64,000 nucleotides of DNA from NCBI GenBank assembly GCA_964387845.1, contig CAYLXA010000001.1, forward strand, positions 128,001-192,000. Direction: 5' to 3'. The notes beneath the pieces were generated by a model. The model saw nothing but the letters and a program-made list of their open reading frames with translations. It was not told where the DNA came from and did no database searches. Within the stretch, counting starts at the first letter, position 1; the number at the start of each line of letters is the position of its first letter. The translations under genes and the position numbers were made by a program. This DNA is from an uncultured bacterium (lineage in GTDB: Bacteria; Omnitrophota; Omnitrophia; Omnitrophales; Abzuiibacteriaceae). Shown piece after piece: positions 1 through 60,657 of this stretch.

Positions 1-3000
1 GCATGCGTTCTGCCAGTTCCGGATCGCGCCGAAGCTGTTTGGGCAATGCATGATTGTTAATCCAGGCTTTCTTCCGCACATTCTGCGGCGTTGCTTGAAG
101 TCCTTCTCGGTTAAGATCACGGATTGCATTGAGAATTCTTCGTGAGAAAAATTGGTTAACGGCTTCTTGAACTGCCCGGTTTTGATTTGTACGGTTTTGA
201 ACCACATCCAGCGAAAGCCGCGATTCCCTTGCGATCGTCATAAAGCTTGTTTTGGATTTCTGGCTTGGTTTCACGCGGCTTAGCTTTTGCAGTGCGTCGA
301 GAATCTCCGAATCATAAAATTCATTCAAAGCAGCTTGAACATTGACGTCCGACCGGACCAATGCTTTGAAATCGGGAACGGACAAGCCTGCTAAACTTGC
401 GATCGTGCGTGTATTTCGAACTGTTATAGACCAATCACTTCTCAAATGCCGAAGTACGGTGCCCAGTTGGTTTGGTTTTGCCCGCCGAAGTTCGCTGCGC
501 CGCTCAGCGCGATGATTGGCCGAAAGCTCGGCCATTTCCATAAGGATGTCGCGCAATCCTTCTTTTTGCACGGAAAAAACGGCGTGCAGCCACTGGAAAT
601 CTTTTTGTAATTGTAGTGTAAAACTGCTTCCCAAAATTAGTTCGGCTACTTGCTTTTTCGCGTTATGGCTGGAATGCTGTGCCTTGCTGGCCCAAGATTT
701 TGTCCGCGGCGGATTTGTATTGGACAATCGATATAAATAGAAAGAAAAACGCCTGATTCCGCTCATTATTTGTTGGAAAGTTTCTGAACTTAATGAATAT
801 GAGTCGGAATTCATTGTAAATTTCGCATATTCATCCCGGAATTTATCTGACAGAACAGCAAAATTGCCGCTCACCTCACGCAAAACGCTCTCGGCCTCGG
901 GATAACGGCGGGCAAGATATTTCAAATTTGTTTCCACATCTTCTATCAAGCGGCTGCCAACCGCAAACAACAACTGATGGCGGATAACAAAAGAAATCCC
1001 GTCCGGCTGGCTAACAGCATGAGGTGAGACTAAATCAAGATCTTCGTGATTGCGGTGCTGGAATTTCATTCCAACCCGCTGATTGACATAAATTTCGGTT
1101 AATAAATCAAGCAACATTTCATATCCGGCTGATCCGAGAGACACTTGCCTCTCCAGCCGGTCTATAAAGCTATGCAAATGGTTAAACAGGACATCATTCA
1201 TATGAGAACGCCATTGGCGTGACTGCATCATCCACAACACCACCGGCAGAAGCTCGTCATATGTACTCTCAGACAACAATTCTCTGAATCGATTGGCTTC
1301 GCCAATAAGATTGATGATAGGCAAATGTCTTTTTGTCACATAATCTTTGATGCGTTTCTCTAGGATACTTTTGGTATTGTAGTGATCAATCGTGAGTTCA
1401 AAATCATTCCGCAGCTCGGAGCGGGCCGGGTCTTCATCTTTGAAATCTAAAGCCTCTACAGACTCATCACGCCGGATTTCTTGCTCAAATGGAGTGACAG
1501 GTTCGGCCTCCACTTTAGGCCTATGGATAGAGTCTGCGATACGCAAAACATTGACCTGCTTATTCATCGAATCGGTCAAAGTAACAGTGGCGGCAAGCCG
1601 GCCTGCATGCTGCCGGACTTGTTTTAAAACAAATATTTTCTTATCAAGGCGCCTGGCCTCGGTTTTACTCCCGCTTGTATACGTTTTTTTCACACCCGTT
1701 ACGAGATAATCAATATGGCCTTCCACGCGATTAACACGCACGATATCCAGCAACTGAATTTGCCGTAGCGGTTCAGGCAGAAAAATAGATCTTTCATCTT
1801 GGATAATCTGCGACACTTCCTGCATGAGCTGATCGAGGCTTTGTAAGGGCACTACTTCTTGTGTATAGGCGGTCCGGTTTACCACGCGCCACTTTCTTCG
1901 AAAAGTTTGAATCCGGTCTCTCAGAAGCCGAATTTCATGAAGCTTCTCGGTATTAATACTTGCTTCCAGATGACTCGGGTGCGCCTGCGTAATTGTGTGT
2001 TGAATGTCAGATTCCGGTTCAAGTGAAATGGGAGCCGTATCCCTTGATTCATCCACTTCATCCAGCATGCGGTTCATGAGCGCTTTCAGAGCGTCCGTAT
2101 TTCCCGCCGCTTGTTTAGTATCTCTCTTCCAACTTTCTCTGACGCGCGGATCAAGCACAAGCGGGCTCAAGATTGAAAACAACCTAGAAAGTAATTGAAA
2201 TAAAGTCGCAGGATCGGTTTGTTGCGCTATTTGCTCCCGCGTACCGGGGATCTTTGGCTGAAGGTCTGATAATTTCTTGAGACGGTCGCTGCTGCCTGAT
2301 AAGAACCGTCCCACCGCATCGGCCTGTTGGGCTTCCGACCTTTCTTCGGCATATCGAGGGCCAGTGTCTTTTGGAACTTCCACTCCAGCTTGTTGAGCCA
2401 ATCGATTCAGATAAGCTTTGCCTTCGCGCTCATCTCTCGCCTTCCGTAAGCGCTCATCTTCCGCGGCTTCACGTGCAATTCTCGCCTGGTCTTGTTGATG
2501 CTTAATGTCCTCCGGATCCGGGAGCTTTGGCCGTTCATCTTCCGCCCGCAATTCGGATGAGGCGCGGGATGTGTTGTCGGTTTCATTGGATATCTTTGAC
2601 CCGTCTGAGTTTGATTCTTTACGGCTGCCATCGAGGACAAAATTCAATTGGCCGCTCAAGAGATCATCGACTTGGACTTCTCCATTTCGCGGCGTACTGC
2701 TGGGATCAATGATCCGATAGACGAACCCCGGCATGAGCGGCACATCGGCATGCCGCTTATGTTTACCATCAGCGTGGCGAACCACAGAACCTACAATGAT
2801 TTTGTCAGCCGTTAAATCTGGATCTTGAAAAACATATGATACGTCTGCGGCAAAACGCTGCGATCTTCCGACCGTCAGAACGATATCGCCGGGCTCGAGT
2901 TGTGAGGCATTGTCGATCGGTTCTGCTGTAAATCCTTGAAGAACTGAGGCAATAAATGCCGAATCCATGGGAAGTGACGGACGATAAAATCGCTCGACCA

Positions 3001-3817
3001 GTGGTTCTATAATCGATTGTTTCCACAATGGAAGCTGGGACAACCATTCCTTGGGGTATCTTTGCGCAAGGTTTTTATAACCTTCCCCAATGCTTGTGTG
3101 GAGGCCAATTCCGCCAATTGTCATCGGTTCTCGCTGATTCTCATCTTGCCGCAGCTCAGAGCGGGCCGACTTCAAAAGCTCCAACACTTCTTTGATCAAC
3201 TCGCGGTCATTCTTCGGAGAGAGAGAACCTGATTGAATTTTTCTCCCGATGATACCAAATTCTGACATTCCGGCTTGCTTTTCCAAATCAAAAAAGACAC
3301 CCGCCATTTCTGGGCTGGCATCAAGGCTTTTTATTTTTCTGCTAGACTCGTGGCGACGAAGAAATCGGGTTGCTTCATCTACCAATCTCTTATCAACTAA
3401 TTTCTTTTGAGTTGTTGGGAGTGTCGAATCACCTAGATCATCCAAATAACCATAAGGATGCTCTGAAGGACGTATTGTCACATAACCAGGCTTCCATTTA
3501 CTCGGATCAAGCGGCCGACTCCGCAGTTCGGAGCGGGATTTTCTGGCTTCAAGCTTCAAGCTTCCAGCTCCAGGTTTAACTGCTTGTGGCTTGTAGCTTG
3601 CAGCTTGTGGCTTGATTGAAACTTGCCCACTCGCGGCAATTTGCGCACTGTAGGGAAGCTGAAGATTAACGTCTTTTCGGAGGCCGAGATTGAAATTAGA
3701 TTTGGTAAGCGATTCGAAGAGAATCGGGGCGTCGCCGTAAGCGACCGTACTGGTCGTTAAAACCGTTGCGACGAGAACAAGGCTAATAAATTTGAAGATA
3801 GAAGATTTTGCCGGCAA
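1..3817 (-). CDS. giant secreted protein, N-terminal ~1270 aa; the C-terminus lies beyond the window start; contains four RSELR motifs
   Basis: Hand translation of the minus strand gives one uninterrupted frame from a TTG at 3817..3815 (preceded by an in-frame TAA) down to nt 1. It is absent from the ORF track because its stop codon lies outside the window. The N-terminus MPAKSSIFKFISLVLVATVLTTSTVAYG looks like a signal peptide. There is a KPQA-type low-complexity stretch and ~55-aa tandem repeats near the window edge. The TTG start is inferred. Confidence 0.55.
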   Translation of the reverse strand, partial: MPAKSSIFKFISLVLVATVLTTSTVAYGDAPILFESLTKSNFNLGLRKDVNLQLPYSAQIAASGQVSIKPQAASYKPQAVKPGAGSLKLEARKSRSELRSRPLDPSKWKPGYVTIRPSEHPYGYLDDLGDSTLPTTQKKLVDKRLVDEATRFLRRHESSRKIKSLDASPEMAGVFFDLEKQAGMSEFGIIGRKIQSGSLSPKNDRELIKEVLELLKSARSELRQDENQREPMTIGGIGLHTSIGEGYKNLAQRYPKEWLSQLPLWKQSIIEPLVERFYRPSLPMDSAFIASVLQGFTAEPIDNASQLEPGDIVLTVGRSQRFAADVSYVFQDPDLTADKIIVGSVVRHADGKHKRHADVPLMPGFVYRIIDPSSTPRNGEVQVDDLLSGQLNFVLDGSRKESNSDGSKISNETDNTSRASSELRAEDERPKLPDPEDIKHQQDQARIAREAAEDERLRKARDEREGKAYLNRLAQQAGVEVPKDTGPRYAEERSEAQQADAVGRFLSGSSDRLKKLSDLQPKIPGTREQIAQQTDPATLFQLLSRLFSILSPLVLDPRVRESWKRDTKQAAGNTDALKALMNRMLDEVDESRDTAPISLEPESDIQHTITQAHPSHLEASINTEKLHEIRLLRDRIQTFRRKWRVVNRTAYTQEVVPLQSLDQLMQEVSQIIQDERSIFLPEPLRQIQLLDIVRVNRVEGHIDYLVTGVKKTYTSGSKTEARRLDKKIFVLKQVRQHAGRLAATVTLTDSMNKQVNVLRIADSIHRPKVEAEPVTPFEQEIRRDESVEALDFKDEDPARSELRNDFELTIDHYNTKSILEKRIKDYVTKRHLPIINLIGEANRFRELLSESTYDELLPVVLWMMQSRQWRSHMNDVLFNHLHSFIDRLERQVSLGSAGYEMLLDLLTEIYVNQRVGMKFQHRNHEDLDLVSPHAVSQPDGISFVIRHQLLFAVGSRLIEDVETNLKYLARRYPEAESVLREVSGNFAVLSDKFRDEYAKFTMNSDSYSLSSETFQQIMSGIRRFSFYLYRLSNTNPPRTKSWASKAQHSSHNAKKQVAELILGSSFTLQLQKDFQWLHAVFSVQKEGLRDILMEMAELSANHRAERRSELRRAKPNQLGTVLRHLRSDWSITVRNTRTIASLAGLSVPDFKALVRSDVNVQAALNEFYDSEILDALQKLSRVKPSQKSKTSFMTIARESRLSLDVVQNRTNQNRAVQEAVNQFFSRRILNAIRDLNREGLQATPQNVRKKAWINNHALPKQLRRDPELAERM

Positions 3818-3927
3818 AGTGGTTTAGCCTGCTTTCTTAAAAAGTGTTTAAATAGTACCATTTTACACCTAATATGGCAAGTTTATGACCCAATATTTAA
3901 TAATTACAGATAAAAATAGAAGGAAAA

Positions 3928-3987
3928 TTAGTGGTAAGTGGTAAGCGATAAGTTGTTCGAATAACTTAAAACTTACCACTTAAAACT
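3928..3987. repeat. heptamer-built palindromic element, copy A: (TAAGTGG)n arm, spacer, (CCACTTA)n arm
   Basis: ttaGTGGTAAGTGGTAAGcgataagtt...aacttaaaacttaccacttaaaac. It shares a 16-nt identical core (AGTGGTAAGTGGTAAG) with copy B at 60581..60650. Confidence 0.6.
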
Positions 3988-3990
3988 AGA

Positions 3991-4221
3991 TCAGCCATCA
4001 CTACCGATGGCTTCGACGGGACATTCTGTAATGGCTTGCTCGCAGCGCTCGCGTTCTTGATCGTTCGCGGGCTGCTTGTGGACATAGCTGTAACCGCTTT
4101 GCTCGTTGCGCTCAAAATTGGCGGGTGCCGTTTGACGGCAAAGATCGCAGTCAATGCACTGCGTATCAACATAAAAAGCGCCTTCAACGTTTCCTAGATG
4201 TTTATGATCTTTGTTAGCCAT
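3991..4221 (-). CDS. small ferredoxin (single 4Fe-4S cluster, CxxCxxC...CP type)
   Basis: 76-aa ORF with CIDCDLC....CP(VEAI) cysteine spacing typical of single-cluster bacterial ferredoxins. It lies next to the 2-oxoacid:ferredoxin oxidoreductase genes. Confidence 0.7.
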   Translation of the reverse strand: MANKDHKHLGNVEGAFYVDTQCIDCDLCRQTAPANFERNEQSGYSYVHKQPANDQERERCEQAITECPVEAIGSDG

Positions 4222-4355
4222 TTTCTTTTAAATTCAAATATCAAATTTCAAAATCTAAAACAAATTCTAAATTCAAATGTTTCAATACAGCTGTTTTGAA
4301 TTTAAGGATTTGGTTATTTGAAATTATTTTGAATTTTGATATTTGATATTTGAAT
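4222..4355. repeat. ~130-bp AT-rich imperfect palindrome filling the aspA-fdx intergenic space
   Basis: The outer arms are a perfect 18-bp inverted repeat: taaattcaaatatcaaat (4224..4241) and atttgatatttgaattta (~4337..4354). The inner parts are built from ttcaaat/atttgaa units around a central ACAGCTGT. Confidence 0.6.
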
Positions 4356-5750
4356 TTACTTCTGTTTTGGGGTTGTCAATTCCTTGGGGGATAAAATTTT
4401 GTCGAGTTCGTCCTTGCTTAACAACTTTTTTTCTAAAATGATTTGCCGCATGGTTTTGCCGGTCTTCACGGATTCTTTCACTACCTCCGCCGCTTTGCTG
4501 TAACCGATATAAGGATTAAGCGCCGCCGCAATGCCGTAACTCTCTTCCGCATATTTTGAGCAGACTTCTTTGTTCGCCGTAATGCCGTCAATGCACATTT
4601 CTGCCAATGCCGAGCATGTGTTCTTTAAAATCTCTATCGATTGCAGCAAATTATGAATCACGGTCGGGATCATGACGTTGAGTTCCAGCTGCCCCGCTTG
4701 TGTCGCCATGGAAATCGCGGTGTCGTTGCCGATGACTTGAAAACAAACGATTGTCGTCATCTCGGGCATCACCGGATTGATCTTCCCCGGCATAATGGAA
4801 GAACCCGGCTGGCGCGCCGGCAATACAATTTCGTTAAAACCGGTCTTGGGACCTGAACTCAAGAGACGCAGATCGTTACAAATTTGGATTAAAACAAGCG
4901 CCAAGGTTTTCAACTCACCCGAAACCGCGCTGAAGTCAGAGGTGCTCTGCATTTTCTCGAAAAGATTTTTCGCAGAACGAAATTTAAATCCCGTAATTTC
5001 ACCAAGATTGGCAACTAGATCATTGCGATATTGAACGGTGGTGTTAAGTCCTGTTCCAACGGCCGAGCCGCCGATTCCCAAATCCAACAGATAATCCGAA
5101 ACATGCTTCACGCGATCAATGCAATTTTGAACGTTGCCGGCGTAGCCGCTAAACTCCTGGCCGAGTGTAATCGGCGCGGCATCCTGCATGTGCGTGCGGC
5201 CGGATTTCACAACATCCGTAAATTCCTTAGACTTTTTCTCGAGGGATTTCACCAATTTCTGAGCTGCCGGATAAAATTCGCCGAGTAGTTTCGTCACCGC
5301 CACCCGGAGTGCTGCAGGCATGACATCGTTGGTGGATTGGCCCATATTCACGTGATCATGCGAATGAACTTTTTTGTAATCGCCTTTTTCGTGGCCCAGG
5401 ATTTCGAGCGCGCGGTTCGTGATCACTTCATTTGTGTTCATGTGCTGCGAAACACCGGCACCCGACTGAAACACATCCACCGGAAATTCCTTGGCCAGCT
5501 TGCCGGCCATCACCTCTTCGGAAGCTTTGACGATGGCATCGCCGATTTTTTTATCGAGCGCACCGCGTTTCATGTTGGCTTTGGCAGCCGCGATTTTAAT
5601 GGCGGCAGTTGCCCATACAAATACGGGATGAAAACGAAGGCCTGAGATCGGGTAATTTTCGATAGCGCGCGCGGTTTCGGCGCCATAATAAACTTCAGAG
5701 GGAACTTGAAATTCTCCTAGCGAATCTTTTTCGGTCCGGGTTTTGGGCAT
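4356..5750 (-). CDS. aspA: aspartate ammonia-lyase (aspartase/fumarase class II family)
   Basis: 464 aa. It has the YYGAETARAIENYPISG N-terminus, FPVDVFQSGAGVSQHMNTNEV and GSSIMPGKINPVMPE (aspartase-like PVxPE rather than fumarase PTQCE). Similarity to E. coli AspA is colinear. Confidence 0.8.
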   Translation of the reverse strand: MPKTRTEKDSLGEFQVPSEVYYGAETARAIENYPISGLRFHPVFVWATAAIKIAAAKANMKRGALDKKIGDAIVKASEEVMAGKLAKEFPVDVFQSGAGVSQHMNTNEVITNRALEILGHEKGDYKKVHSHDHVNMGQSTNDVMPAALRVAVTKLLGEFYPAAQKLVKSLEKKSKEFTDVVKSGRTHMQDAAPITLGQEFSGYAGNVQNCIDRVKHVSDYLLDLGIGGSAVGTGLNTTVQYRNDLVANLGEITGFKFRSAKNLFEKMQSTSDFSAVSGELKTLALVLIQICNDLRLLSSGPKTGFNEIVLPARQPGSSIMPGKINPVMPEMTTIVCFQVIGNDTAISMATQAGQLELNVMIPTVIHNLLQSIEILKNTCSALAEMCIDGITANKEVCSKYAEESYGIAAALNPYIGYSKAAEVVKESVKTGKTMRQIILEKKLLSKDELDKILSPKELTTPKQK

Positions 5751-9655: not shown

Positions 9656-12600
9656 GTCAAAGCTCCTTTCTGATTTAATTTTAATTCACGAGACTTCCAA
9701 ACCGCGTAAATCGCGGGATACACCAAAAGTTCGAGGATAAACGATGTCAACAGCCCACCGATCATAGGCGCCGCAATCCGTTTCATCACATCGGCACCGG
9801 CGCCCATCGTCCACATGATGGGAATCAAACCCATGAATGAAGTAACGACTGTCATCATTTTGGGCCTCACGCGCTTGACCGCTCCGTGGACCACAGCTTC
9901 ATCCAAATCCTCTTTGGTTTTCATTTTGCCGTTTTTGACCGCGTCTTGATACGCTAAATCTAAAAAGAGCAGCATGAAAACACCCGTTTCGGCATCGAGT
10001 CCCATTAGCGCAATCATGCCGACCCAAACAGCAATTGAAATATTGTAGTCCAGAATCCAAAGCAGCCAAACCGCTCCGATCAGCGAAAATGGGACGGCAA
10101 GCAAGACGATCCCTGTTTTCACCCATGATTTGGTATTGATATAAAGCAGGAAACAAATAATAAACAGTGTGAGCGGTATTACAATTTTCAAACGTTCTTT
10201 CACACGGATCATATTTTCATACTGCCCGCTCCAAAGCAGCGTGTAACCCGGCGTCAGCTTTAGTTCTCGATCGACGATTTTCTTCGCCTCATCAACATAG
10301 CTTCCAATATCGCGCCCTGTCATATCAACATATACGTACCCGGCCAACAAACCATTTTCATTTCGGATCATGGCTGGCCCGGAATTTAAGCGGATATCCG
10401 CAAGCTGCGCAAGCGGCACATGAGTTCCTGACGGCGTCGGCACAAAAACACGTTTTAGTTTTTCAATGTCATCCCGAAATTCACGTGAATAACGGACATT
10501 GACCGGATAACGTTCGCGGCCTTCGATAGTAGTTGTGATATTCTCACCGCCGATTGCAGTCATGATAACCAGCTGCGCATCATCAACTGAAAGCCCATAA
10601 CGCGCAAGTTCTTCGCGCTTCAAATCAAAATCCACAAAATAGCCGCCCGCCACCCGTTCCGCGTAGACGCTGCGTGTTCCCGGAACGTTTCGAAGAATCA
10701 TTTCAATATGCGTTCCGATTTCCTGGATCTTTTGAATATCATCGCCCAGGATTTTGATTCCGATCGGCGTTCGGACGCCTGTTGTTAGCATGTCAATCCG
10801 GTTTTTAATCGGCATCGTCCAGGCGTTTGTAGTCCCCGGAATTTTGAGCGCTTGATCCATCAGTTCAATTAATTCTTCGTGAGAAATACGCTCAGGCCAA
10901 ACACTTTGAAAAGGCCATTTGAAATGAGCCGGCAGCCACGAATGCCACCTTGGCTTGAAGCGCCATTCTTTTTCGGGCTTGAGCAGCACAACAGTTTCCA
11001 TCATGGAAAACGGCGCAGGGTCGGTCGAGCTTTCGATACGGCCGGATTTTCCGAACACACGCTCCACTTCGGGAAAACTTTTGAGGATTTTATCTTGTTT
11101 CTGTAAAAGTGCCTGAGCTTCGGTTACTGAAATTCCGGGCAAAGTGGTCGGCATGTAGAGAATGCTGCCTTCCCATAAGGGCGGCATAAATTCGGTGCCA
11201 AGACGCATATAAACCGGAATGGTTGTGAGCACCAATAAAAGCGCTGCGATAATTGTTTTCTTGCGGTGTCTTAGAACAAACCGGCACACCGGTTCATAAA
11301 TCTTAAATAAAACTTTGCTGACCGGATGTTTTTCTTCGGGATAGTAAGTGCCAACAAAAAGCGTGGTTGCCATTTTAGACAGCCATGTGAGCTTGATCCC
11401 CTCGCCCTTCCCTCGCTTCGAAGGAAAAAGATTGATGGTGAGGGGTTTGAACGGCTCCATGCGCGTAAAGAGCATCCGGATCGCAGGATCGAGTGTAATG
11501 GCCAAAATGGCGGCAATCGCCATCGCTAAATTCTTGGACCAGGCGAGAGGTTTAAAGAGGCGCCCTTCCTGATCCACTAAAGTGAAAATCGGCAAGAAGG
11601 CGACGGCAATCACAAGCAGTGAAAAGAAAATAGAGGGCCCGACTTCTTTTAACGCCTGAAGCCGGACTACATGGAAATCCCCTTTCCTACCGCCTTCTAT
11701 CCATTGCTCCAGCCGTTTGTATGCGTTTTCAACTTCTACGATAGCGCCGTCCACCAAAACACCGATTGAAATGGCGATGCCGGCAAGCGACATGATGTTG
11801 GATGTTAGGTTCATTCCGTTCAGAAGAATGAACGAAAGCAGCACCGAAATCGGAATGGTCACAATCGGAACAATCGCAGACGGAAAATGCCAGAGGAAAA
11901 TCATAATGATGATGCTGACAATAATCATTTCTTCAACAAGCTGATGTTTCAGCGTTTCAATCGCACGGACGATTAAATCCGACCTGTCGTAAAGCTCTAC
12001 CAATTCCACGCCTGGAGGAAATGAGGATTTCAATTCCTTAAACCGCTCCTTAACACGTTTGATGACTGTCAAAGCATTTTCACCGGAGCGCATGACGATG
12101 GTTCCTGTCACCACATCGCCCTCGCCGTTTAAGTCCGCAAGCCCGCGGCGGATTTCAGGCCCGATTGTCACAGTCCCGATGTGTTTCACCAAAATCGGCG
12201 TGCCTTTTTCATCGATACCGACTACAATATTTTCAAATTCATCAATTGTTTTCGCATAACCACGGCTCCGCACCATGTATTCCGCGCCTGAAAATTCAAG
12301 AAGCCTTCCGCCGACCTCCTGATTTCCTTTCCGGATCGCCTCTACCACGCGTGTGATCGGCATGTTGTAAGCCAAAAGCCGGTTTGGATCGATTGTCACT
12401 TGATATTGCTTCACAAATCCGCCGAGAGAAGCGACTTCGGCAACGCCCGGAACGCTTTGAAGGTTGTAGCGCAGAAACCAATCTTGAAAAGATCTTAATT
12501 CCTGGAGGTCGTGCTGCCCGGTTTTATCAACAATCGCGTATTGATAAACCCAGCCAACACCCGTCGCGTCAGGCCCAAGTTCGGTTTTGACACCGTCGGG

Positions 12601-16297: not shown

Positions 16298-19200
16298 GTG
16301 ATGGACAATATGAAAAAGAGTACAAATTTTTTTGTACCTTTATTTAAATCTTTTCTAACTGGCTTACCAAAACGCGTTGTTACAGTTCTAGCCACTTTCT
16401 TCCTAGTCATTAACCAAGTCATTATTCCGGTTCCTAATTCCTTACTTCCCACGCTTAGCCCGGCAATCGCACAAGCTTCGGAAGATAACGGTACGACGGT
16501 GTCGATAGAAGCCTCCGGCGACGCTTATCTATCAAAGCAAAATCCGGATCAAAATTATGGCATTACGGATCTTATTACCGTAGACGGGCAAGACATTAAT
16601 GGAGACCCGAACACTGAGCTACGCGGACTGATCAAATGGAATCTTAGCCAATTGCCGGAAGGCAGTGTGGTCCAATCTGCCAGAATCATCCTTCATCTCG
16701 TCAACCACAGCGGCGGCAATGTTTATACCTTGCACAAATCTACGAAAGACTGGCACGAGGCGGATGTGACATGGAACAATGCAAGTGCCGACTTTGAATC
16801 AGCCTCTCTCGGCATACTGTCATCCAATATTTTAGGATTGCACAGCATCCCGTTGAATAGCGACGGAATTGCAGCCATTCAATCTTGGATCGATAATCCG
16901 GAAACCAATTTTGGATTTTTAATCCTCCCTGACGCAAACAGCACCAACGGCTTTGAATTTAAATCAAAAGATTCTTCTATTAAACCCGTCCTTGAAGTGA
17001 CAGTCACATTTCCTCAGGATGCTAGTTACAACGTTGAGATGTCAGTGAGTGGCGACGGCGCTATTTTCGTGAGCCCGGAACAGCCATTTGGATTTAACGA
17101 TAACGTTACGTTTACGGCGGAAGCCAACGATGGCTGGCAATTTGAAAGGTGGGAAGGCGATCTTGGCGGAGTGGAAAATCCGGCAACGATTCAAATTCAA
17201 AACAACATGAATGTGATGGCTGTTTTTCAATCTCTGGCTCCAGCTGAACCGCAAATGGGAATGTCGACTTGCGGTAACGGCGTGCTCGAAAATGGCGAAC
17301 AATGCGAGGGATCAAATCTGGGAGGTCAAAGCTGCTCAACTCTCGGGAACGGTTCAGGAACTCTTGTGTGTGCAAGCGACTGCACATTCAATATGGGCAG
17401 TTGCGCATTTGCGTGGCCGGCCGAGGCATTTGCATCAGCCGAAAACTTAACTTACATTGATTCTACCGGCTTTGGGGTTAATTTAAGCGGCGCCGCTTGG
17501 AATCCGGTATCACGAAAACTTTGGCTCGTTCGAAATGGCGGACCCGGCGGATCAAAATTGTGGGTATTGAGAGAAAATGGCAGCGGCGGATTTGAAGTTG
17601 ATTATAAAAATGGGCTGCGCGGTGAATGGTCCAATTTTAATGATTTAGAGGCTATTGCGCTGGCTGATTTTAATAATCCCGATGTGGTTTATTTATTAAT
17701 AGAAGGCGAAGAGCGCATTAAGAGATACAACATATCGACCTACGGCACGGCCATTCTTGAACGAAATTGGAACACAAGTCCGCATTTACCTTTAAATGGC
17801 GGGAGCGGCGCTGAAGCGCTTGCTTTTATTCCCGATTCATTTTTGACTGCGCAGGGCTTTGTAGATCCGGCCGGCAATCCGCGCACAAGTCAAAACGGAA
17901 TGGGCGGCTTGATGTTTGTCGGTCATCAAAACGGCGGACGGATTTATGTGTTCGACTTAAATCCTAATAATGACTCTTTCACCTATGTTGGCGCTTATCG
18001 AACAAACTATTCTGAAACTGCAGATCTGGCCTTTGATCGTTCAACCGGTTACTTGTATGTTTTTCATGGCGCCAATCATAATCATACTGAAGTGGTGTCT
18101 CTGGCTTCAACAGTAAACGGAAGTGAGCGAAAGCTTGTCACGCTGGTTGATTATAATCGCCCAACCGGAAGCGCAACAAACAGCAATATGGAAGGCATTG
18201 CGGTTGTTGAAACATCTGATTGTGCGGATGGAAAACGAGATTTCTTTTTGACGATTGATGACGGCGGCGCTGATTCCCTGTTCCGCTTCCGTAATTTTCC
18301 GTGCGGCTTGGCACGCAACAAAGCGCCTGTTGTGAATGCCGGATCCGATCAAACCATTACATTCCCGAACGCCGCTGCATTAAATGCAAGCGCATCCGAT
18401 GATCGTTTGCCCAATGGAACTATTACAACAACGTGGACACAAATTGGATTTGTGCCTGCGCCAGGTGTTTCCGGAAGCGGTGTCGCTACATTTGATGATT
18501 CAACCGCGTTAGCAACAAACGTTAACTTTGACTTGGCCGGCGATTACACGCTCCGCATGACAGTCACCGATGGCGAACTCTCAGCCGCGGACGATGTGAT
18601 TGTAACTGTCGATGAGGCAGCACGGCCTGTTACGTTTACCATTAATGCCTCGGCTGGATCTAACGGGTTTATTTCACCGATTGGAGAAGTTATTGTTGAT
18701 TCAGGCGCTAATCAAACATTCACAATCGCGCCAAATGCCAATTATCACATTGCCAATGTATTAGTAGACGGGGCTTCCGTAGGCGCGGTTTCAAGTTACA
18801 CATTTTCAAACGTAACGGCGAATCATACCATCGCGGCCAGTTTTGAAGTGAATACTTATACGATTGACTCCTCCGCGGGATCCAATGGTTCTATCTCACC
18901 CGCCGGTGTGACGACAGTGAATCATGGCGGTAGTCAAACCTTCACCATGACACCGAGCACAGGCTATCACGTAGCTGATGTGTTGGTGGATGGTGCATCA
19001 GTAGGTGCCGTGTCTAGCTATACCTTCAGCAATGTGACGGCTGATCATACGATTGAGGTGAGTTTTGCAGCAAGCAGTTTCACCATCACAGCTACAGCCG
19101 GCACTAATGGTTCTATCTCGCCAAGTGGTGATGTGGATGTTTCAGCCGGAGATGATCAGGTGTTTACGATAACGCCTAATTCTGGATTTCAAATTCAGAA

Positions 19201-22060
19201 CGTGACGGTTGATGGGCAGCCCGCAGGCGTTCTTTCAACCCATACATTTAGTAATGTCACCGCCAATCACACGATTCACGCTTCTTTTGTAGCAATAGAT
19301 CCTGTGAGAGATACCTACCTCCGGCAAAATACACCAACCACCAATTATGGAAGTGCAACCAGCGTCAATGTAGATGGCGATGAACCGGCAGGAACGGGAC
19401 ACGACGTGTTTGGTCTGTTGCGTTTTAACGTAGCACCTATTCCTGCTGGAAGCATCATTGATGCAATCGAATTAAGATTAAACATCACGAATGACACGCC
19501 GCACACTTACAGAATCTATGAAGTGAAGCGCCCTTGGTCTGAAGATCAGGCTACATGGAACCAAGCAGCAGCCGGTATGCCGTGGCAGGTTGCAGGCGCA
19601 AAAGGGGCCGAAGATCGTGGAGTAATTTTAGCAAATATAGGGCCTCTGGCTCTCGGACAACAGACCATTCTTTTGAATGACGCGGCTAAAAATATAATTC
19701 TCGGCTGGGCCAATAATCCTGCAAATAATCACGGCCTTATGATTGCAGACGAGGCAAGTACAAACGGTTTTGATTTTGCTTCCTTTGAATCGGCAACACC
19801 GCCACAACTCATTATCACCCATCGCCCAGGCTATACAATGACAACCAACGTCAATGGCAATGGGTCAGTATCAAAGAATCCGGATCAACAATATTACACA
19901 AATGGTTCAAATGTTACTTTAACCGCTAACGCAGGAGCCAACTCTGTATTCACCGGCTGGTCGGGTGACGCAACGGGAACCACCAACCCGCTTTCCGTTT
20001 CCATGAATAGCGATAAGAATATAACCGCTAACTTTACTATCAGAACCTATACACTCACGGCGTCAGCCGGTGCAAATGGTTCTATCTCACCCGCCGGCGT
20101 GACGACTGTCAATCATGGAGCGAGCCAGACTTACACCATGACACCGGCAACGGGTTATCACGTAGCCAATGTATTAGTAGACGGGGCTTCCGTAGGCGCG
20201 GTTTCAAGTTATACGTTTAGCAATGTCACAGCGGCTCACACGATCTCTGTCTCGTTTGCAATTAACACTTATACAGTCACCACCACGGCTACTTCAAACG
20301 GCACCATTTCTCTTTCGCCTAATCAAGCTTCGTATAATCATGGTTCAACGGTTACTGTGACCGCAACACCGAATAGCGGCTACACCTTCGCTAACTGGAC
20401 CGGTAGTCTCTCAGGTAGCGTGAACCCGGCCACACTCACGATGGACAGCAATAAAACCATCGGAGCGGTGTTCGCACAGATTCCGACGTTCACGATTACC
20501 CCGTCTGCGGGATTAAACGGTTCGATCTCTCCCGATACCATGGTCAATGTAATGGAAGGCGAGGATCAAACCTTCACCATCACGCCGGCGGCGGGTTATC
20601 ACATTGAAGATGTCTTGGTCGATGGCACCTCTGTTGGCGCAGTCGCAAGCTATACCTTCAGCAATGTGACGGCAAACCATACGATTGCAGCCAGTTTTGC
20701 GGTAAATACCTTCGCATTGTCGGCTTCTGTTTCAGGCAATGGCTCTATTTCAAAAAACCCGGACCAACCATACTACAACAACGGCTCTTCAGTGACTCTC
20801 ACTGCGAATGCAGGAGCTGATTCTGTATTCATCGGCTGGTCGGGCGATGCTTCAGGAACTGCTAATCCACTTTCGGTCACGATGAACGGCGATAAAAATA
20901 TTACGGCTAACTTTGCCGTTCGAACTTATTCATTGACCGCATCCGTTGAAGGAAGCGGCTCCATATCACCTTCAGGAGTTACATCGGTCAGCCACGGCGG
21001 GAGCCTAACTTACACGATAACCCCGGCAGCCGGTTATCGGATCCAATTTGTGAAAGTGGACGGCGTTTCGGTTGGCGCCGTTGAAAGCTATACGTTCAAT
21101 AACGTTACCGCCAACCATACGATTGCAGCAACTTTTTCAGTGAACACGTTCATTGTCTCTGCTTCTAACGGCAGTAACGGAAATATTTCACCCGTCGGAA
21201 ATACTCCGGTTAATGAGGGTGCTGATCAAACCTATGTGATTACTCCTGATTCAGGCTATGCTATTGAAGACGTGCGTGTAGACAATCAGTCGATGGGTGC
21301 AATTCCAAGCTACACCTTTAGTAATGTGACCGCCAATCACACAATTTCAGCAAGCTTCACCATGATTAGGCGCGCGTTAACCATTAGCACCAACCGCGGG
21401 CTTGGCGGAGCAGTCATTATCAATCCGGACAGCCCGGACGGCACTTATCTGCACGGCACGGAAGTAACCTTGACGGCTATTGCAAACCCCGGAAATATTT
21501 TCTCGGGATGGAGCGGAGACGCGGCGGGTTTGATTAATCCAGTCACAATCACCATGGACGCAGATAAAAATGTAACGGCTAATTTCAGCATGATCACTTA
21601 TTCGATAGAAGTTGAGACGACAACCGGCGGCGCGGTAGAAGTAAGCCCTGAAGGCCCACACTATTTGGGAGATGAAATTACACTGACAGCCACGCCGGAC
21701 TCAACTCACACCTTCAATGGATGGAGCGGCGACGTTACCGGTTCTGAAAATCCGATCTCAGTGACCGTAACGGGAAACATGAACATTGCGGCAAATTTTG
21801 CACCGATTACTTATACGCTCAATATAACCACAATCGGAAACGGAACCGTCACAAAAAGCCCGAATATGACGGATTACCCGGCAGGCACATCGGTAACCTT
21901 GACCGCGAACCCCGCGCGTTTCTGGAATTTTCTGCGCTGGACAGGAAACGCTTCGGGAACCAATCCGGTTATTACAGTTGTCATGGATGGCAACAAAAAC
22001 ATTCAGGCACGCTTTAAGCAGGGCCTAAGTCCATTCAGCGGCGGCGGCCCGGCATCGTAA
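16298..22060 (+). CDS. 1920-aa secreted/surface protein: two DNRLRE-type domains, a Cys-rich region, a beta-propeller-like region, a PKD domain and ~14 InlB-B-repeat-like domains
   Basis: N-terminal signal/anchor. The DNRLRE-like blocks are NTELRGLIKWNLSQLP...VTWNN and VFGLLRFNVAPIP...ATWNQ. The PKD-like block is APVVNAGSDQTITF. Many ~75-aa repeats have the pattern G..GS.SP.G..Y..G..VTLTA.P..G..F.GWSGD or ..GYH..DVLVDG..VGAV.SYTFSNVTANHTI. Confidence 0.85.
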   Translation: MMDNMKKSTNFFVPLFKSFLTGLPKRVVTVLATFFLVINQVIIPVPNSLLPTLSPAIAQASEDNGTTVSIEASGDAYLSKQNPDQNYGITDLITVDGQDINGDPNTELRGLIKWNLSQLPEGSVVQSARIILHLVNHSGGNVYTLHKSTKDWHEADVTWNNASADFESASLGILSSNILGLHSIPLNSDGIAAIQSWIDNPETNFGFLILPDANSTNGFEFKSKDSSIKPVLEVTVTFPQDASYNVEMSVSGDGAIFVSPEQPFGFNDNVTFTAEANDGWQFERWEGDLGGVENPATIQIQNNMNVMAVFQSLAPAEPQMGMSTCGNGVLENGEQCEGSNLGGQSCSTLGNGSGTLVCASDCTFNMGSCAFAWPAEAFASAENLTYIDSTGFGVNLSGAAWNPVSRKLWLVRNGGPGGSKLWVLRENGSGGFEVDYKNGLRGEWSNFNDLEAIALADFNNPDVVYLLIEGEERIKRYNISTYGTAILERNWNTSPHLPLNGGSGAEALAFIPDSFLTAQGFVDPAGNPRTSQNGMGGLMFVGHQNGGRIYVFDLNPNNDSFTYVGAYRTNYSETADLAFDRSTGYLYVFHGANHNHTEVVSLASTVNGSERKLVTLVDYNRPTGSATNSNMEGIAVVETSDCADGKRDFFLTIDDGGADSLFRFRNFPCGLARNKAPVVNAGSDQTITFPNAAALNASASDDRLPNGTITTTWTQIGFVPAPGVSGSGVATFDDSTALATNVNFDLAGDYTLRMTVTDGELSAADDVIVTVDEAARPVTFTINASAGSNGFISPIGEVIVDSGANQTFTIAPNANYHIANVLVDGASVGAVSSYTFSNVTANHTIAASFEVNTYTIDSSAGSNGSISPAGVTTVNHGGSQTFTMTPSTGYHVADVLVDGASVGAVSSYTFSNVTADHTIEVSFAASSFTITATAGTNGSISPSGDVDVSAGDDQVFTITPNSGFQIQNVTVDGQPAGVLSTHTFSNVTANHTIHASFVAIDPVRDTYLRQNTPTTNYGSATSVNVDGDEPAGTGHDVFGLLRFNVAPIPAGSIIDAIELRLNITNDTPHTYRIYEVKRPWSEDQATWNQAAAGMPWQVAGAKGAEDRGVILANIGPLALGQQTILLNDAAKNIILGWANNPANNHGLMIADEASTNGFDFASFESATPPQLIITHRPGYTMTTNVNGNGSVSKNPDQQYYTNGSNVTLTANAGANSVFTGWSGDATGTTNPLSVSMNSDKNITANFTIRTYTLTASAGANGSISPAGVTTVNHGASQTYTMTPATGYHVANVLVDGASVGAVSSYTFSNVTAAHTISVSFAINTYTVTTTATSNGTISLSPNQASYNHGSTVTVTATPNSGYTFANWTGSLSGSVNPATLTMDSNKTIGAVFAQIPTFTITPSAGLNGSISPDTMVNVMEGEDQTFTITPAAGYHIEDVLVDGTSVGAVASYTFSNVTANHTIAASFAVNTFALSASVSGNGSISKNPDQPYYNNGSSVTLTANAGADSVFIGWSGDASGTANPLSVTMNGDKNITANFAVRTYSLTASVEGSGSISPSGVTSVSHGGSLTYTITPAAGYRIQFVKVDGVSVGAVESYTFNNVTANHTIAATFSVNTFIVSASNGSNGNISPVGNTPVNEGADQTYVITPDSGYAIEDVRVDNQSMGAIPSYTFSNVTANHTISASFTMIRRALTISTNRGLGGAVIINPDSPDGTYLHGTEVTLTAIANPGNIFSGWSGDAAGLINPVTITMDADKNVTANFSMITYSIEVETTTGGAVEVSPEGPHYLGDEITLTATPDSTHTFNGWSGDVTGSENPISVTVTGNMNIAANFAPITYTLNITTIGNGTVTKSPNMTDYPAGTSVTLTANPARFWNFLRWTGNASGTNPVITVVMDGNKNIQARFKQGLSPFSGGGPAS

Positions 22061-25633: not shown

Positions 25634-26962
25634 TTATGAGCCGCGCTTGGCTGATTGAGCCTGGAGCTGACCTTGGCGTGCGTAATCAATAGCTTCAGCT
25701 AATATGCGCGCAACTTCCTGAGGCGCGTGAAAACCCATTGAATTCTCGGCTGAAACAAAATCAAGCCGCCACTGGGCTTTTCGGTGCATTTCAAGAGCCG
25801 GCTGTAATTCTTCTTCACCTGCGCCGCGTTTTTTGGCCGCAACGATTTCATCGATCAGTGCCAACACGGCAGCCTCGGCGCGGTCCATCAACACTTGTGT
25901 TTTTTCCTGAATAGATTCGGCTCGGTCAAGCATTTCGCGCTCCGTAAAATGATGGCACGGAAGGCACGACCTCGACACATTCAAAAGCGGGCTGCGAATA
26001 TGATGATCCGTCACTTTTAGCGCGCCTTCACGCTGATAAGGCATGTGGCAATCGGCGCACGAAACACCGCTGCGCGAATGGATGCCCTGATTCCACATTT
26101 CAAATTCGGGGTGCTGGGCTTTCAGCATTTTCGCGCCCGTTTCGGCATGCACCCAATCCGTGTGGCCGACTTGCTCATAATAAGCTTCAATTTCTTCAAC
26201 TTTTAACCCATTCGCCCACGGATAAGTGAGCATTTTCTCAGGGCCCGCAAAATAATATTCAACATGGCATTGAGCACAGACAAACGTGCGCATCTCCTGC
26301 CGGGTTGCCATGGTGTTTGGGTCATAATTTTGAATGCCTTCGCGCTCTTTAACTTTTTTAATTGCATTCATAAATCCCGGACGCGTGACACGCAGGTCCA
26401 TCGTTTTCGGATTGTGGCAATCCGTACACGCGATCGGATGTTGGACATACTTCCATGCCTCCTCAAGCGGCATTTTATTCACCTTCGCAAATCCCGCCTG
26501 GATGTCCCCTTCACCGACTAATTCATAAACTTGTTTCATGCCGCCTGCGTGGCATTGGAGGCAAGCGCCCGGCTGTTTGAACTCTTTTGTCCGGAGCGTT
26601 TCCTGCTGATCCGACAAGGAATACGCATGGCCGCGCTCTTCCCGGTAATCAACACCGAATGCGTAACCCGCGAAGAAACGTTTCCACGCAGGATCTTCAT
26701 CCAGTTTCGAGAAAGCTTCGCTGCCGCCGTAGCGCGTGCGCGCCGTATCAACCGTGCGGATATAGCCGTCATACTGGCGCGGATAATTTTTTGCCCAAAT
26801 CGCGGGATCAATTGTTTCTTCCGTCAATTCGACGACGGATATGTTCCGCCACTTGGCTTCTTCTTTTCTTTCGCGAATATTCAAGAGCAGAGACGTAATA
26901 GCCCATGTAACTGCAGACGTCATCACAATAATAAGAAAGTAAACCGCCATTTTTTTGAACAT
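25634..26962 (-). CDS. nrfA: cytochrome c nitrite reductase, pentaheme catalytic subunit
   Basis: Five CxxCH motifs, including the CAQCHVEYYF block. N-terminal membrane/signal segment. 442 aa. Confidence 0.85.
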   Translation of the reverse strand: MFKKMAVYFLIIVMTSAVTWAITSLLLNIRERKEEAKWRNISVVELTEETIDPAIWAKNYPRQYDGYIRTVDTARTRYGGSEAFSKLDEDPAWKRFFAGYAFGVDYREERGHAYSLSDQQETLRTKEFKQPGACLQCHAGGMKQVYELVGEGDIQAGFAKVNKMPLEEAWKYVQHPIACTDCHNPKTMDLRVTRPGFMNAIKKVKEREGIQNYDPNTMATRQEMRTFVCAQCHVEYYFAGPEKMLTYPWANGLKVEEIEAYYEQVGHTDWVHAETGAKMLKAQHPEFEMWNQGIHSRSGVSCADCHMPYQREGALKVTDHHIRSPLLNVSRSCLPCHHFTEREMLDRAESIQEKTQVLMDRAEAAVLALIDEIVAAKKRGAGEEELQPALEMHRKAQWRLDFVSAENSMGFHAPQEVARILAEAIDYARQGQLQAQSAKRGS

Positions 26963-26972
26963 GCCTGGCTCC

Positions 26973-27437
26973 TTAATCGTACACCGCGTGGCCGACCGAA
27001 CGGTGGCAGCTTGTACAGTTCATAACTCCCCTTTGAATATCCCTGTGGCTTGCAATATCGCTTGTTAGAACCTGATGGCAATGAATACAGTTATGTTGAA
27101 GATCATTCAGATTTTTCGGCGTAATCCGGATCGGCTCCGGCCAGTTCTGAAGCGTAAATGCTTTCGAATGATTCCACCCGTTCCTGGCTTTGACCCAGTA
27201 TTTTTCCGGAAACGTATGCGGCACATGGCAGTCGTTGCAGCTTGCGGCTTTGTGGTGGCTTGACCTTATCCATGAATCATAATGCTCCTGCATAATATGG
27301 CAATTAACACACGCCTGCGGGTTATTGCTCAAATAGGAAGTGCCTTTTGCATAATAAAATGTGTAGCTGCCAACCCCCACAACAATGCCGCCGCAAACCG
27401 CGAGCACCATCAAAACACCGTTAAAACCTAATTTCAT
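26973..27437 (-). CDS. nrfH: NapC/NirT-family tetraheme cytochrome c, quinol-oxidising partner of NrfA
   Basis: N-terminal TM helix plus four CxxCH motifs (CVNCH, CNDCH, CIHCH, CTSCH). It lies directly upstream of nrfA. Confidence 0.85.
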   Translation of the reverse strand: MKLGFNGVLMVLAVCGGIVVGVGSYTFYYAKGTSYLSNNPQACVNCHIMQEHYDSWIRSSHHKAASCNDCHVPHTFPEKYWVKARNGWNHSKAFTLQNWPEPIRITPKNLNDLQHNCIHCHQVLTSDIASHRDIQRGVMNCTSCHRSVGHAVYD

Positions 27438-34228: not shown

Positions 34229-34325
34229 GGGCTTCTCCTTAAGTAGGGCTGTATTTTAACGGTTTACTCCTTATTCTTCTAGCCATTTTTATCTGTCTCC
34301 AAATATATTACAATTATTTATATTT

Positions 34326-34358
34326 ATACTTACAATATACTTACAATTGTGGTATAGT
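34326..34358 (+). promoter_or_regulatory. tandem 11-bp direct repeat ATACTTACAAT x2 forming a sigma70-like promoter (TTACAA-17 nt-TATAGT) 6 nt before the purU ATG
   Basis: Repeats at 34326..34336 and 34337..34347. Putative -35 element at 34330..34335 and -10 element at 34353..34358. There is no Shine-Dalgarno sequence, so the mRNA may be leaderless. Confidence 0.4.
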
Positions 34359-45286: not shown

Positions 45287-45476
45287 GAAATGTAAAACGC
45301 TCCCTTACGCGAAGATTTATTGAGCTAAAGTGTAGCACTTTATCCTTATATTTTCAATATAATAGGTAATTTAATTTATATAAAATGTATTTAATAGTTC
45401 TATATAGTACTATAAAAATATAAGCTGAAATTTAAGTGTTGAATCAAAAAAACAAGGCGCGATATACTTTTTTGCT

Positions 45477-58994: not shown

Positions 58995-59852
58995 TTAGCC
59001 GGCCAGTTTTCGGAACACTTGTGGTAAATATTGAATGATGTCTGAAGCAATCAGTGATATTTGACCTTGTTTTTTTACGGCAAAATCGCCGGCAAGGCCG
59101 TGAACATACACACCTGCGCAAGCAGCATCAAAGGGTTTCAGTTTTTGGCCCAAAAGCGCTGCGATGACGCCGGTCAAAACATCGCCTGATCCGCCCGTTG
59201 CCATGCCGGCATTCCCGGTTGAATTTACAAATGCTCTGCCGCTTTGATCCGCCACGACTGTCTGATTGCCTTTTAGAACCAGCGTCAGCCGGTATTGTTG
59301 AGAGATTTTTTTTGCAATCAGAATTCTCCCTTTTAAATCACCGGGCACCGATACTTTGAAAAGCCGGTGGAATTCACCCGGGTGCGGCGTTGCAATCAAA
59401 GGCGCTTTTAACTTCCGGAACCGAGCAGCTTTCCCTACAAAAGCATTCAACCCATCAGCATCCAGCACAACCGGAATTTTGGATGCTAAAACCGCGCGGC
59501 GGATCAATTTCTGAGTTTCCGGATTTTGTGACAGTCCGGGGCCGACGGCAAAAACATTTTGGTTCTTGAGAAACGTTTTGATTTTTGAGAAAGCGCGAGC
59601 GCTGAGCGTTCCCGATTTTGTTTCAGGAAGCGGCAGGAACATCGCTTCGGTTAAACGCTTTGCCATCACAAGTGATAAACCTTCCGGGACTCCGACCGTC
59701 ACAAGGCCTGCGCCCGAACGAAGCGCAGCCGTGCCGGCCAACACCGCAGCGCCGCTCATGCCAACAGAGCCTGCGAGAATCAAAATGCGTCCAAAATCGC
59801 CTTTGTGGCTTTTTGGGTTCCGGGGTGGAAGTAAATGGCGGATATTTTTCAT
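58995..59852 (-). CDS. nnrD: ADP-dependent NAD(P)H-hydrate dehydratase (YjeF C-terminal domain family)
   Basis: GDFGRILILAGSVGMSGAAVLAG and GSGDVLTGVIAALL motifs. 285 aa. Confidence 0.8.
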   Translation of the reverse strand: MKNIRHLLPPRNPKSHKGDFGRILILAGSVGMSGAAVLAGTAALRSGAGLVTVGVPEGLSLVMAKRLTEAMFLPLPETKSGTLSARAFSKIKTFLKNQNVFAVGPGLSQNPETQKLIRRAVLASKIPVVLDADGLNAFVGKAARFRKLKAPLIATPHPGEFHRLFKVSVPGDLKGRILIAKKISQQYRLTLVLKGNQTVVADQSGRAFVNSTGNAGMATGGSGDVLTGVIAALLGQKLKPFDAACAGVYVHGLAGDFAVKKQGQISLIASDIIQYLPQVFRKLAG

Positions 59853-60565
59853 ACTTTTCGGATCAATCGAACTATTTCAGAAGTTGCGCTTCTGATGCCG
59901 GTAAAAATCGAGCGGGCGATAATCGCATGACCGATGTTGAGCTCCTCCATAAACGGAAGCCGGGCAACCGGCATCACATTTTCATAATTGAGGCCGTGGC
60001 CTGCGTTAACGCCTAAACCAAGTGCGTGCGCAAAAATGGCAGCGCGCCGGAGCCGTTTGAGCTCTGCAGCCCTCTTTTTTCCGGAAACCCGGGCATAAGT
60101 TCCCGTATGAAGCTCGATGTAATCGGCATTCACTTTCCGCGCAGCCTGGATTTGCCGAAAATCCGGATCGATAAAAAGACTCACGCAAATTCCGGCACGT
60201 TTCAATTTTTTAACGGCTGAACTGACTTTCTTAACAGATCCAAGCACATCCAGCCCGCCTTCGGTCGTCAATTCCAAACGACGCTCCGGAACTAAGCAAG
60301 CTTTTTGAGGTTTGGTTTTGACGGCAAACCGGACAATTTCGGCAGATACGGACATTTCCAGATTGAGCGGGACTTTGATTGACTTGAGCAGCCGGGTAAC
60401 ATCGGCATCCTGAATATGGCGGCGGTCTTCGCGCAGGTGAACCGTAATGCCCGATGCACCGCCGCGAATTCCTTCCTGCGCTGCCTTTAAGATATCGGGA
60501 ACAATATCGCGCCGGGCTTGGCGGACCGTTGCGACATGGTCAATATTAAGACCTAGCTTAATCAA
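59849..60565 (-). CDS. pdxJ: pyridoxine 5'-phosphate synthase
   Basis: LGLNIDHVATVRQAR...HLREDRRHI, the canonical PdxJ sequence. TTG start with GAGG 9 nt upstream. Confidence 0.85.
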   Translation of the reverse strand: MIKLGLNIDHVATVRQARRDIVPDILKAAQEGIRGGASGITVHLREDRRHIQDADVTRLLKSIKVPLNLEMSVSAEIVRFAVKTKPQKACLVPERRLELTTEGGLDVLGSVKKVSSAVKKLKRAGICVSLFIDPDFRQIQAARKVNADYIELHTGTYARVSGKKRAAELKRLRRAAIFAHALGLGVNAGHGLNYENVMPVARLPFMEELNIGHAIIARSIFTGIRSATSEIVRLIRKV

Positions 60566-60580
60566 TGCATTGCCTCAGTG

Positions 60581-60650
60581 TTAAGGGATAAGTGGTAAGT
60601 GGTAAGTTATTTTGAATATCTTAACACTTATCACTTACAACTTACCCCTT
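60581..60650. repeat. heptamer-built palindromic element, copy B
   Basis: ttaagggaTAAGTGGTAAGTGGTAAGtt-attttgaatatcttaa-CACTTATCACTTACAACTTACC. It lies between the cdaR stop and the pdxJ RBS. Confidence 0.6.
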
Positions 60651-60657
60651 CACAAAA

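Follow-up and report, generated by a model that had tools for sequence, protein, structure and literature searches.

In many bacteria, no long simple-sequence repeats are more over-represented than heptameric ones; like the STRR arrays of cyanobacteria, these are mostly intergenic and have been put down to slippage of the polymerase (Mrazek 2007 and Mazel 1990, to the extent that they are reported in PMC4692102 and PMC4679880). In Xanthomonas they form 70-75 inverted pairs of GGGAATC arrays, always convergent, which lie close together on opposite strands between genes, usually with about four tandem 7-nt units per array; the pairs are transcribed and vary in length and sequence between related genomes, 83% of the sites are common to two species, and their function there is unknown (Rehm et al. 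2015, PMC4692102). The TAACTGA arrays of Beggiatoaceae, Cyanobacteria and Bacteroidetes place one heptamer in distant phyla with no evident mechanism of transfer; they are found near start and stop codons, mostly just upstream of start codons, nearly all are direct repeats (one inverted case in 170 sets in the BOGUAY genome), and at the same site close relatives have shorter spacers without heptamers (MacGregor 2015, PMC4679880). Geobacter metallireducens has multicopy sites of four or five tandem heptanucleotide repeats, with the units MTYCTGA and GGACCGG, which fall in regulator-site classes described as mostly paired, the class-3 sequence looping between strands, and which were interpreted as putative binding sites of global regulators or as RNA elements (Aklujkar et al. 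2009, PMC2700814). Finally, REP elements are tagged palindromes of 20-40 bp, often RAYT-linked and variable between strains, that lie predominantly downstream of coding regions, are plausibly transcribed into RNA hairpins and are viewed as selfish DNA that may stabilise mRNAs or terminate transcription (Di Nocera et al. 2013, PMC3733652).

The window, that is, the whole 64-kb stretch of Omnitrophota DNA analysed here, contains two intergenic elements, copies A and B, in which an array of TAAGTGG-type units is directly joined to its own reverse complement and thereby gives a palindrome of 60-78 bp. Copy A (3929-3988), located past the fdx stop codon and ahead of the promoter of a giant gene, runs TTAGTGG, TAAGTGG, TAAGCGA, TAAGTTG, a TTCGAA centre and then the mirror arm. 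Its two arms (3929-3958 and 3959-3988) are of 30 nt each, are 80% complementary and meet with no central spacer at the dyad TTC/GAA. Copy B (about 60579-60654), between the stop codon of cdaR (YbbR) and pdxJ, runs TAAGGGA, TAAGTGG, TAAGTGG, TAAGTTA, a loop, and then CTTAACA, CTTATCA, CTTACAA and CTTACCC; its core arms (60577-60599 and 60620-60642) are of 23 nt and 83% complementary, and outer pairs extend them to about 60579-60654. This copy begins 4 nt past the cdaR stop codon and ends 2 nt short of the pdxJ Shine-Dalgarno GAGG (60573-60576). The 16-mer AGTGGTAAGTGGTAAG, which an initial annotation of the region had given as the common core of both elements, is found at exactly two sites of the window, 3930 and 60591, where shuffled sequences predict 0.10. 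The motif TAAGYGGTAAG, with up to one mismatch, has 10 matches in the window against 0.96 expected, nine of them inside copies A and B, and the likeness of the copies reaches into the loop (TTCGAATAAC in one, TTTGAATATC in the other).

The periodicity was detected by TRF at 3930-3953, 3963-3987 and 60577-60607, with a separate tandem scan in agreement, and at least three head-to-tail 7-nt units are present in both copies, as in the heptanucleotide class of long simple-sequence repeats. As RNA, copy A folds at -24.9 kcal/mol on the minus strand and -25.2 on the plus strand (z -7.3 and -6.5) and copy B at -30.9 and -30.0 kcal/mol on the two strands (z -5.8 and -5.4); none of 200 shuffles folds as well as either copy, on either strand. 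The palindromic order of a heptamer run and its complementary run, which the initial annotation had described, is thus confirmed by the arms and by the folds, and the minus-strand gene context that it gave (fdx and the giant gene, cdaR and pdxJ) agrees with the stops and starts placed here. The stem is longer than the roughly 20 bp that it estimated, with about 24-30 paired positions and bulges, and membership of the elements in the known heptanucleotide simple-sequence repeat class had been missed.

Both copies separate housekeeping genes read from the minus strand. The gene fdx (3991-4221, minus; stop codon 3991-3993) encodes a single-cluster 4Fe-4S ferredoxin of 76 aa (Fer4_13, E 2.7e-21) and has a heptamer palindrome on either side, copy A and a third palindrome described below. 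The 5' part of the giant gene (1-3817, minus) starts at about 3817, in a frame open from 3823, and leaves the window at position 1; more than 1274 aa are encoded in the window, and an identical Logan contig gives a product of 3617 aa with a Metallophos domain, itself cut at the end of the locus. Across copy A, Logan contig L001 is identical to the window. The promoter-like site of the giant gene (3852-3880, minus), composed of TTGCCA, 17 nt and TGnTACTAT, lies downstream of copy A on the transcribed strand. At the other locus, cdaA (61630-62454) is the upstream neighbour of cdaR (60658-61620, minus; YbbR-domain; stop codon 60658-60660), which precedes copy B, and pdxJ (59849-60565, minus; PdxJ, E 8.6e-94) follows it with a TTG start at 60565. 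The closest named homologues of PdxJ and AspA are from Candidatus Omnitrophica MAGs, and the assignment of the host to Omnitrophota follows the names of such homologues; a 409-kb NCBI contig carries an identical PdxJ. The 26 ORFs of the window that were scanned are housekeeping genes, including nrfAH-like cytochromes, pseudopilins and sugar-nucleotide enzymes, and no transposase, reverse transcriptase or replication gene was found among them. The stretch has three giant genes in 64 kb, the one at 1-3817 (minus) and those at 16298-22060 (plus, 1920 aa) and 35933-45286 (minus, 3117 aa). At 25634-27437 (minus), a cytochrome c552 gene (NrfA-like, E 1.7e-134) adjoins one for a NapC/NirT-family (NrfH-like) cytochrome, a pair that suggests nitrite ammonification in the source Omnitrophota genome.

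Compared with the described systems, copies A and B are closest in architecture to the Xanthomonas pairs, since they too are close convergent arrays of tandem 7-nt units on opposite strands between genes, with the TAAGTGG arm on the 5' side. They differ from them in unit and in host. The TAAGTGG unit has no GGG tract and so, unlike GGGAATC, gives no G-quadruplex; G-tracts in the two copies are GG at most, except for one GGG or GGGG at the outer ends of copy B. In STRR arrays the units are CCCCAGT, TTGGTCA and CAACAGT, and the host is cyanobacterial; the window elements have other units in another host, and they are full palindromes, whereas the STRR are single arrays. A cyanobacterial STRR/HIP1 context was rejected, the units being TAAGTGG-type, the host Omnitrophota and the cyanobacterial palindrome GCGATCGC present once in 64 kb. 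With the TAACTGA repeats the window elements share their places near start and stop codons and the shorter, repeat-free spacers of close relatives, but the unit is another one and those repeats are nearly all direct. Likewise, the Geobacter metallireducens sites resemble them in the tandem heptanucleotides and their multiplicity and differ in the units. With REP elements they share the intergenic position downstream of genes, the palindromic form and the variable presence, but they are tandem heptamers of 60-78 nt, and no RAYT was seen in the window. The reading that we consider probable is that copies A and B are paired convergent heptanucleotide arrays of a TAAGTGG class, that they belong to a broad class of intergenic palindromes, and that they are recent and dispensable gains in this Omnitrophota lineage.

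Short, regularly spaced units in dyad symmetry are also what arrays of sites for a DNA-binding protein, iteron-like or of a global regulator, would look like, and for the heptanucleotide repeats of Geobacter the published annotation proposes binding of global regulators (PMC2700814). Such a role is very improbable for the window elements. With a period of 7 bp, neighbouring units face different sides of the helix; the palindromes are unlike one another in unit sequence, relatives lack the elements, and these come after stop codons and not in promoters, copy A being about 50 nt upstream of the -35 hexamer. Iteron or origin repeats are direct repeats of about 17-22 bp, whereas the units here are of 7 nt and inverted, the neighbours are fdx, aspA, cdaA, cdaR and pdxJ, and the scanned ORFs include no replication or partition gene nearby. 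The iteron-like site suggested in the initial annotation is therefore not supported by units of 7 nt between housekeeping genes.

The stability of the stem-loops on the transcribed strand raises the alternative of selected RNA devices, that is, intrinsic or bidirectional terminators, or intercistronic hairpins that stabilise mRNA, which would fix the level of fdx expression relative to that of the giant gene and the level of cdaR relative to that of pdxJ. After copy A come AUUUUCCUUCUAUUUUUAU and, beyond it, a separate promoter that is conserved, and the stem of copy B, like that of a similar element in another Omnitrophota genome (L070), stops just before an exposed Shine-Dalgarno sequence. 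A consensus terminator scan calls neither copy, however: the tail of copy A is U-rich but interrupted, and is found on the minus strand only, while copy B has none. The third palindrome also has no U tract. Since the plus-strand tail of copy A is A-rich, this copy is not bidirectional, and the bidirectional terminator considered in the initial annotation is not supported by copy B either, which is intra-operon. Copy B and the L070 element, which have no U tract and leave the next ribosome-binding site exposed, cannot be terminators, whereas the U-rich tail of copy A, followed by a conserved promoter, may help to end the fdx transcript. The hairpins match no Rfam family above the gathering threshold; in the window, only two tRNAs exceed it, and the hairpins give just sub-threshold matches to eukaryotic miRNA precursors. 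Considering also that close relatives of identical gene order have no such elements, selection for a defined RNA function is rather improbable as the reason for their presence.

The window is rich in other structures of the same period. A third palindrome (4229-4358) occupies the entire aspA-fdx spacer, its first three bases being the aspA stop codon TAA. It has arms of 42 nt built from AAATATC and AAATTTC units with the complement GATATTT and GAAATTT, and folds at -36.4 and -37.1 kcal/mol (z -8.0 and -6.5). This is the strongest close inverted repeat of the window, and the top three are all heptamer-built. A weak inverted heptamer pair is found at 3541-3607 inside the giant gene (minus), with GCTTCAA three times and then GCTTGTR four times; its fold is marginal (z -1.8 and -2.3), and at the protein level it corresponds to a low-complexity linker, KPQAASYKPQAVKPGAGSLKLEA, which follows the signal peptide. 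The family is therefore not confined to the two sites proposed initially. Comparison with the relative L125, in which the linker is poorly conserved and too diverged, could not show the weak pair to be an in-frame insertion. In total, seven period-7 arrays of at least three units were detected in the window where shuffled sequences gave 0.2, together with two of period 6 and none of periods 8-12 in the same tandem-array scan. Other AT-rich tandem repeats lie between predicted ORFs at 34302-34347 (period 11) and 45357-45414 (21/10), and within the predicted ORF 58995-59852 (minus) at 59552-59592 (period 19).

These observations bear on the possibility that each palindrome originated in place, from a short seed expanded by 7-nt slippage and copied by an intrastrand template switch (fold-back synthesis), with convergence as the source of the shared 16-mer. 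Different heptamers give one architecture in the window, three of the four heptamer palindromes fall within 820 bp, the unit variants and the unequal unit numbers in the arms of copy B fit slippage, and no mobility genes were found among the scanned ORFs; heptamer excess has moreover been attributed to slippage in the literature (PMC4692102, PMC4679880). The likeness of copies A and B, on the other hand, continues into the loop, which counts against origin in place.

Orthologous sites in relatives provide the comparison by which presence and absence can be judged, and every site retrieved is empty of the window palindromes. The cdaR-pdxJ spacer is of 92 nt in the window, 17 nt in L131, 26 nt in L002 and 23 nt in L005. 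The closest of these relatives, L131, has a PdxJ 95% identical and DNA 88.8% identical to those of the window, and its 17-nt spacer, TTGAGGGCGCCCATTTT, is without a heptamer seed; in L002 (84%) and L005 (81%) the full synteny tilS-ftsH-folP-yebC-ruvCAB-cdaA-cdaR-pdxJ is kept. The extra 71-78 nt of the window spacer are the palindrome itself, placed between the stop codon and the Shine-Dalgarno sequence. At the other locus, L125 (AspA 93% identical) keeps the aspA-fdx-giant order as well as the block GGTCATAAACTTG...AAATGGTACTATTT upstream of the giant gene (11870-11915 in L125), with its extended -10 promoter-like site, while the surrounding spacer has diverged; both copy A and the third palindrome are absent. 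The aspA-fdx spacer of L125 has instead an unrelated 82-nt palindrome (11406-11487, CGTCATTGCGAG...CTCGCAATGACG), which opens with CGTC, the tag of one REP superfamily, so that sister lineages carry different palindromes in one spacer. No period-7 arrays were detected in about 75 kb of relatives' DNA. The empty orthologous sites, together with this lack of arrays, indicate that the window palindromes are recent and dispensable, in distinction from the Xanthomonas sites, most of which two species share, and their being missing in close relatives means that an essential function is not implied. A palindrome of 71-78 nt where the seedless spacer of L131 has 17 nt also counts against origin in place, although the outer stem of copy B does resemble the TGAGGG of the ancestral spacer.

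The edge of the insertion could not be fixed at copy B, where MAFFT and an affine-gap alignment put the gap at different places. The ambiguity arises because the TGAGGG of L131 can be aligned either with the outer 5' stem (TGAAGGGG) or with the Shine-Dalgarno sequence that follows the element. The TGAGG around copy B is for this reason a possible duplication that is indistinguishable from alignment ambiguity, and copy A has no duplication, so the search for target-site duplications suggested in the initial annotation gave a negative answer at one copy and an ambiguous one at the other.

Clean presence or absence between close relatives and palindromes with no obvious target-site duplication would agree with non-autonomous mobile elements of REP or MITE type, moved in trans by a hairpin-recognising transposase such as an IS200/IS605-family Y1 (RAYT-like) enzyme. 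Enzymes of this family insert without target duplication. The different palindrome opening with CGTC in the aspA-fdx spacer of L125 would also fit, as would the position, REPs being found mainly downstream of coding regions and plausibly transcribed (PMC3733652). Even so, we consider such mobility unlikely. The elements, of 60 nt (A) and about 76 nt (B), were rejected as REPs by their length, and again by their tag, the stem flanks being AAAATT and AAAACTAG at copy A and TTTT and TGAGG at copy B, with no unpaired GTAG or CGTC. Two copies are found in 64 kb, with no transposase domain among the 26 ORFs scanned. The terminal inverted repeats of MITEs are not seen here as discrete parts, the palindrome extending through the whole element. 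Stems of variable heptamers are a poor sequence-specific substrate, and the third palindrome, built from an unrelated heptamer, shows that one mobile family cannot explain all the palindromes. Among the three classes put forward initially, the REP/MITE-like one nevertheless remains the closest in behaviour, for the elements are palindromic, intergenic and gained in this lineage; the length and the tag do not hold, and discrete terminal inverted repeats and a clear target-site duplication are not seen.

Outside the relatives, the exact 16-mer was sought in two public collections and matched at least 118 genome stretches (L007-L124) and at least 120 metagenome stretches (L132-L251). Most of the matches listed are true TAAGTGG arrays, with a median of 4.3 units and a maximum of 27, and the named hosts among them cover at least five phyla: Planctomycetota (several Thermoguttaceae), Acidobacteriota (Pyrinomonadaceae, Granulicella), Bacteroidota, Pseudomonadota (Nitrosomonadales, Gallionella, Thiobacillus) and a cyanobacterium, as well as another Omnitrophota genome. 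The initial annotation had reasoned that the existence of only two copies, along with empty sites in related genomes, would weaken the idea of a family; the sites are empty, two TAAGTGG copies are visible in the window, and arrays of the unit occur in all these phyla. A CCACTTA-type array lies within 150 nt at 24% of the genome loci and 23% of the metagenome loci listed, where chance would give an estimated 0.5% or so. The palindromes are mostly placed between co-directional ORFs, a few nt from a stop or start codon, among the loci whose ORFs could be placed, a context that is approximate because ORFs were chosen by greedy start-to-stop selection; stop-to-stop ORF overlap was discarded as a test of coding context, since CCACTTA arrays are open in all frames and yield spurious ORFs. 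The element of L070 is arranged as copy B, with a stop codon, 4 nt, the palindrome TAGTGGTAAGTGGTAAG..., AAGGAG and ATG. No paper in the searched literature contains the TAAGTGG array sequence.

Most loops of these palindromes are unique among the palindromic loci listed, as would be expected from formation in place. Two are shared by distinct loci and genomes and constitute dispersed subfamilies of non-repeat loops: GGACGCAAGCG, in the Thermoguttaceae L009, L012, L049, L066 and L106 and in L232, and GTGAAAG.A.AAAAC, in L065, L082, L212 and L222 (Pyrinomonadaceae and other Acidobacteriota). Dispersal of loop subfamilies within lineages would agree with mobility and counts against origin in place. 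The conserved apical sequence GGACGCAAGCG resembles a GNRA tetraloop, and the likeness of some loop subfamilies to such tetraloops would agree with a role of the RNA.

The orientation of the arms is nearly invariant. In 45 of the 46 palindromic loci among the matches listed the TAAGTGG arm precedes the CCACTTA arm in the 5' to 3' direction, and the polarity is the same in each collection (24:1 in genomes and 21:0 in metagenomes; binomial p about 1e-6 each, for the matches listed). Read 5' to 3' on either strand, such a palindrome therefore has its G-rich, C-poor arm first. A general rule by which the G-rich arm comes first for all heptamers was not supported, given that nine pairs of other heptamers at the same loci, a small sample, were split 5 to 4 for units unlike TAAGTGG, and the third palindrome of the window is of the opposite sense. 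Descent from a polar founder element is a possible cause of the polarity; synthesis from two 3' ends toward the centre is another; and selection, for instance against a C-rich Rho-loading tract that comes first or for all-frame TAA stops in the proximal arm, is possible too. Symmetric fold-back synthesis would not be expected to give a 45:1 polarity. Origin of the palindromes in place is, with this evidence and that of the loops and relatives, a tentative alternative, less doubtful than mobility in trans. The same ratio is not predicted by simple slippage, and to that extent it counts also against paired heptanucleotide arrays as the explanation that we prefer.

For the origin and spread of such paired arrays, and for their effects at the RNA level, we infer the following course. 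A short spacer that separates co-directional genes would gain a whole palindrome, which would arise there or be copied in; replication slippage would then reshape the palindrome in 7-nt steps and leave a mix of unit variants, and it would be co-transcribed with the flanking genes and form a long stem-loop in the mRNA. Copying of the whole palindrome is put forward only as a conjecture, since neither an enzyme nor terminal inverted repeats nor a clear target-site duplication could be identified. In this course the elements would behave as REP-like selfish or neutral DNA, acting at most as a barrier to 3' exonucleases or as a weak terminator; protection of the upstream mRNA from 3' exonucleases is plausible by analogy with REP. 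A specific function is not needed to explain the presence of the elements.

More speculatively, and with little probability, a dedicated DNA transaction with strand polarity, at work in many phyla, may generate the TAAGTGG palindromes, either as a new class of hairpin-shaped non-autonomous mobile elements or as repair scars. In the latter version, heptamers would be added to both 3' ends in the direction of the centre, and the products would be joined head to head during break or gap repair. If true, this would explain the insertions free of duplication, the 45:1 preference for the G-rich arm on the 5' side of both strands, and the reappearance of one unit in unrelated bacteria.

Paired convergent heptanucleotide arrays are thus extended to Omnitrophota as a host phylum and to TAAGTGG, a unit not found in the searched literature; new here as well are filled and empty sites compared at about 89% DNA identity, and palindromes of one unit in at least five named phyla. 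In practice, annotation of the elements as terminators or regulatory sites is to be avoided. Heptanucleotide repeats are the foremost over-represented long simple repeats of bacteria; the near-absolute polarity observed in two independent collections constrains any model for the formation of TAAGTGG palindromes.
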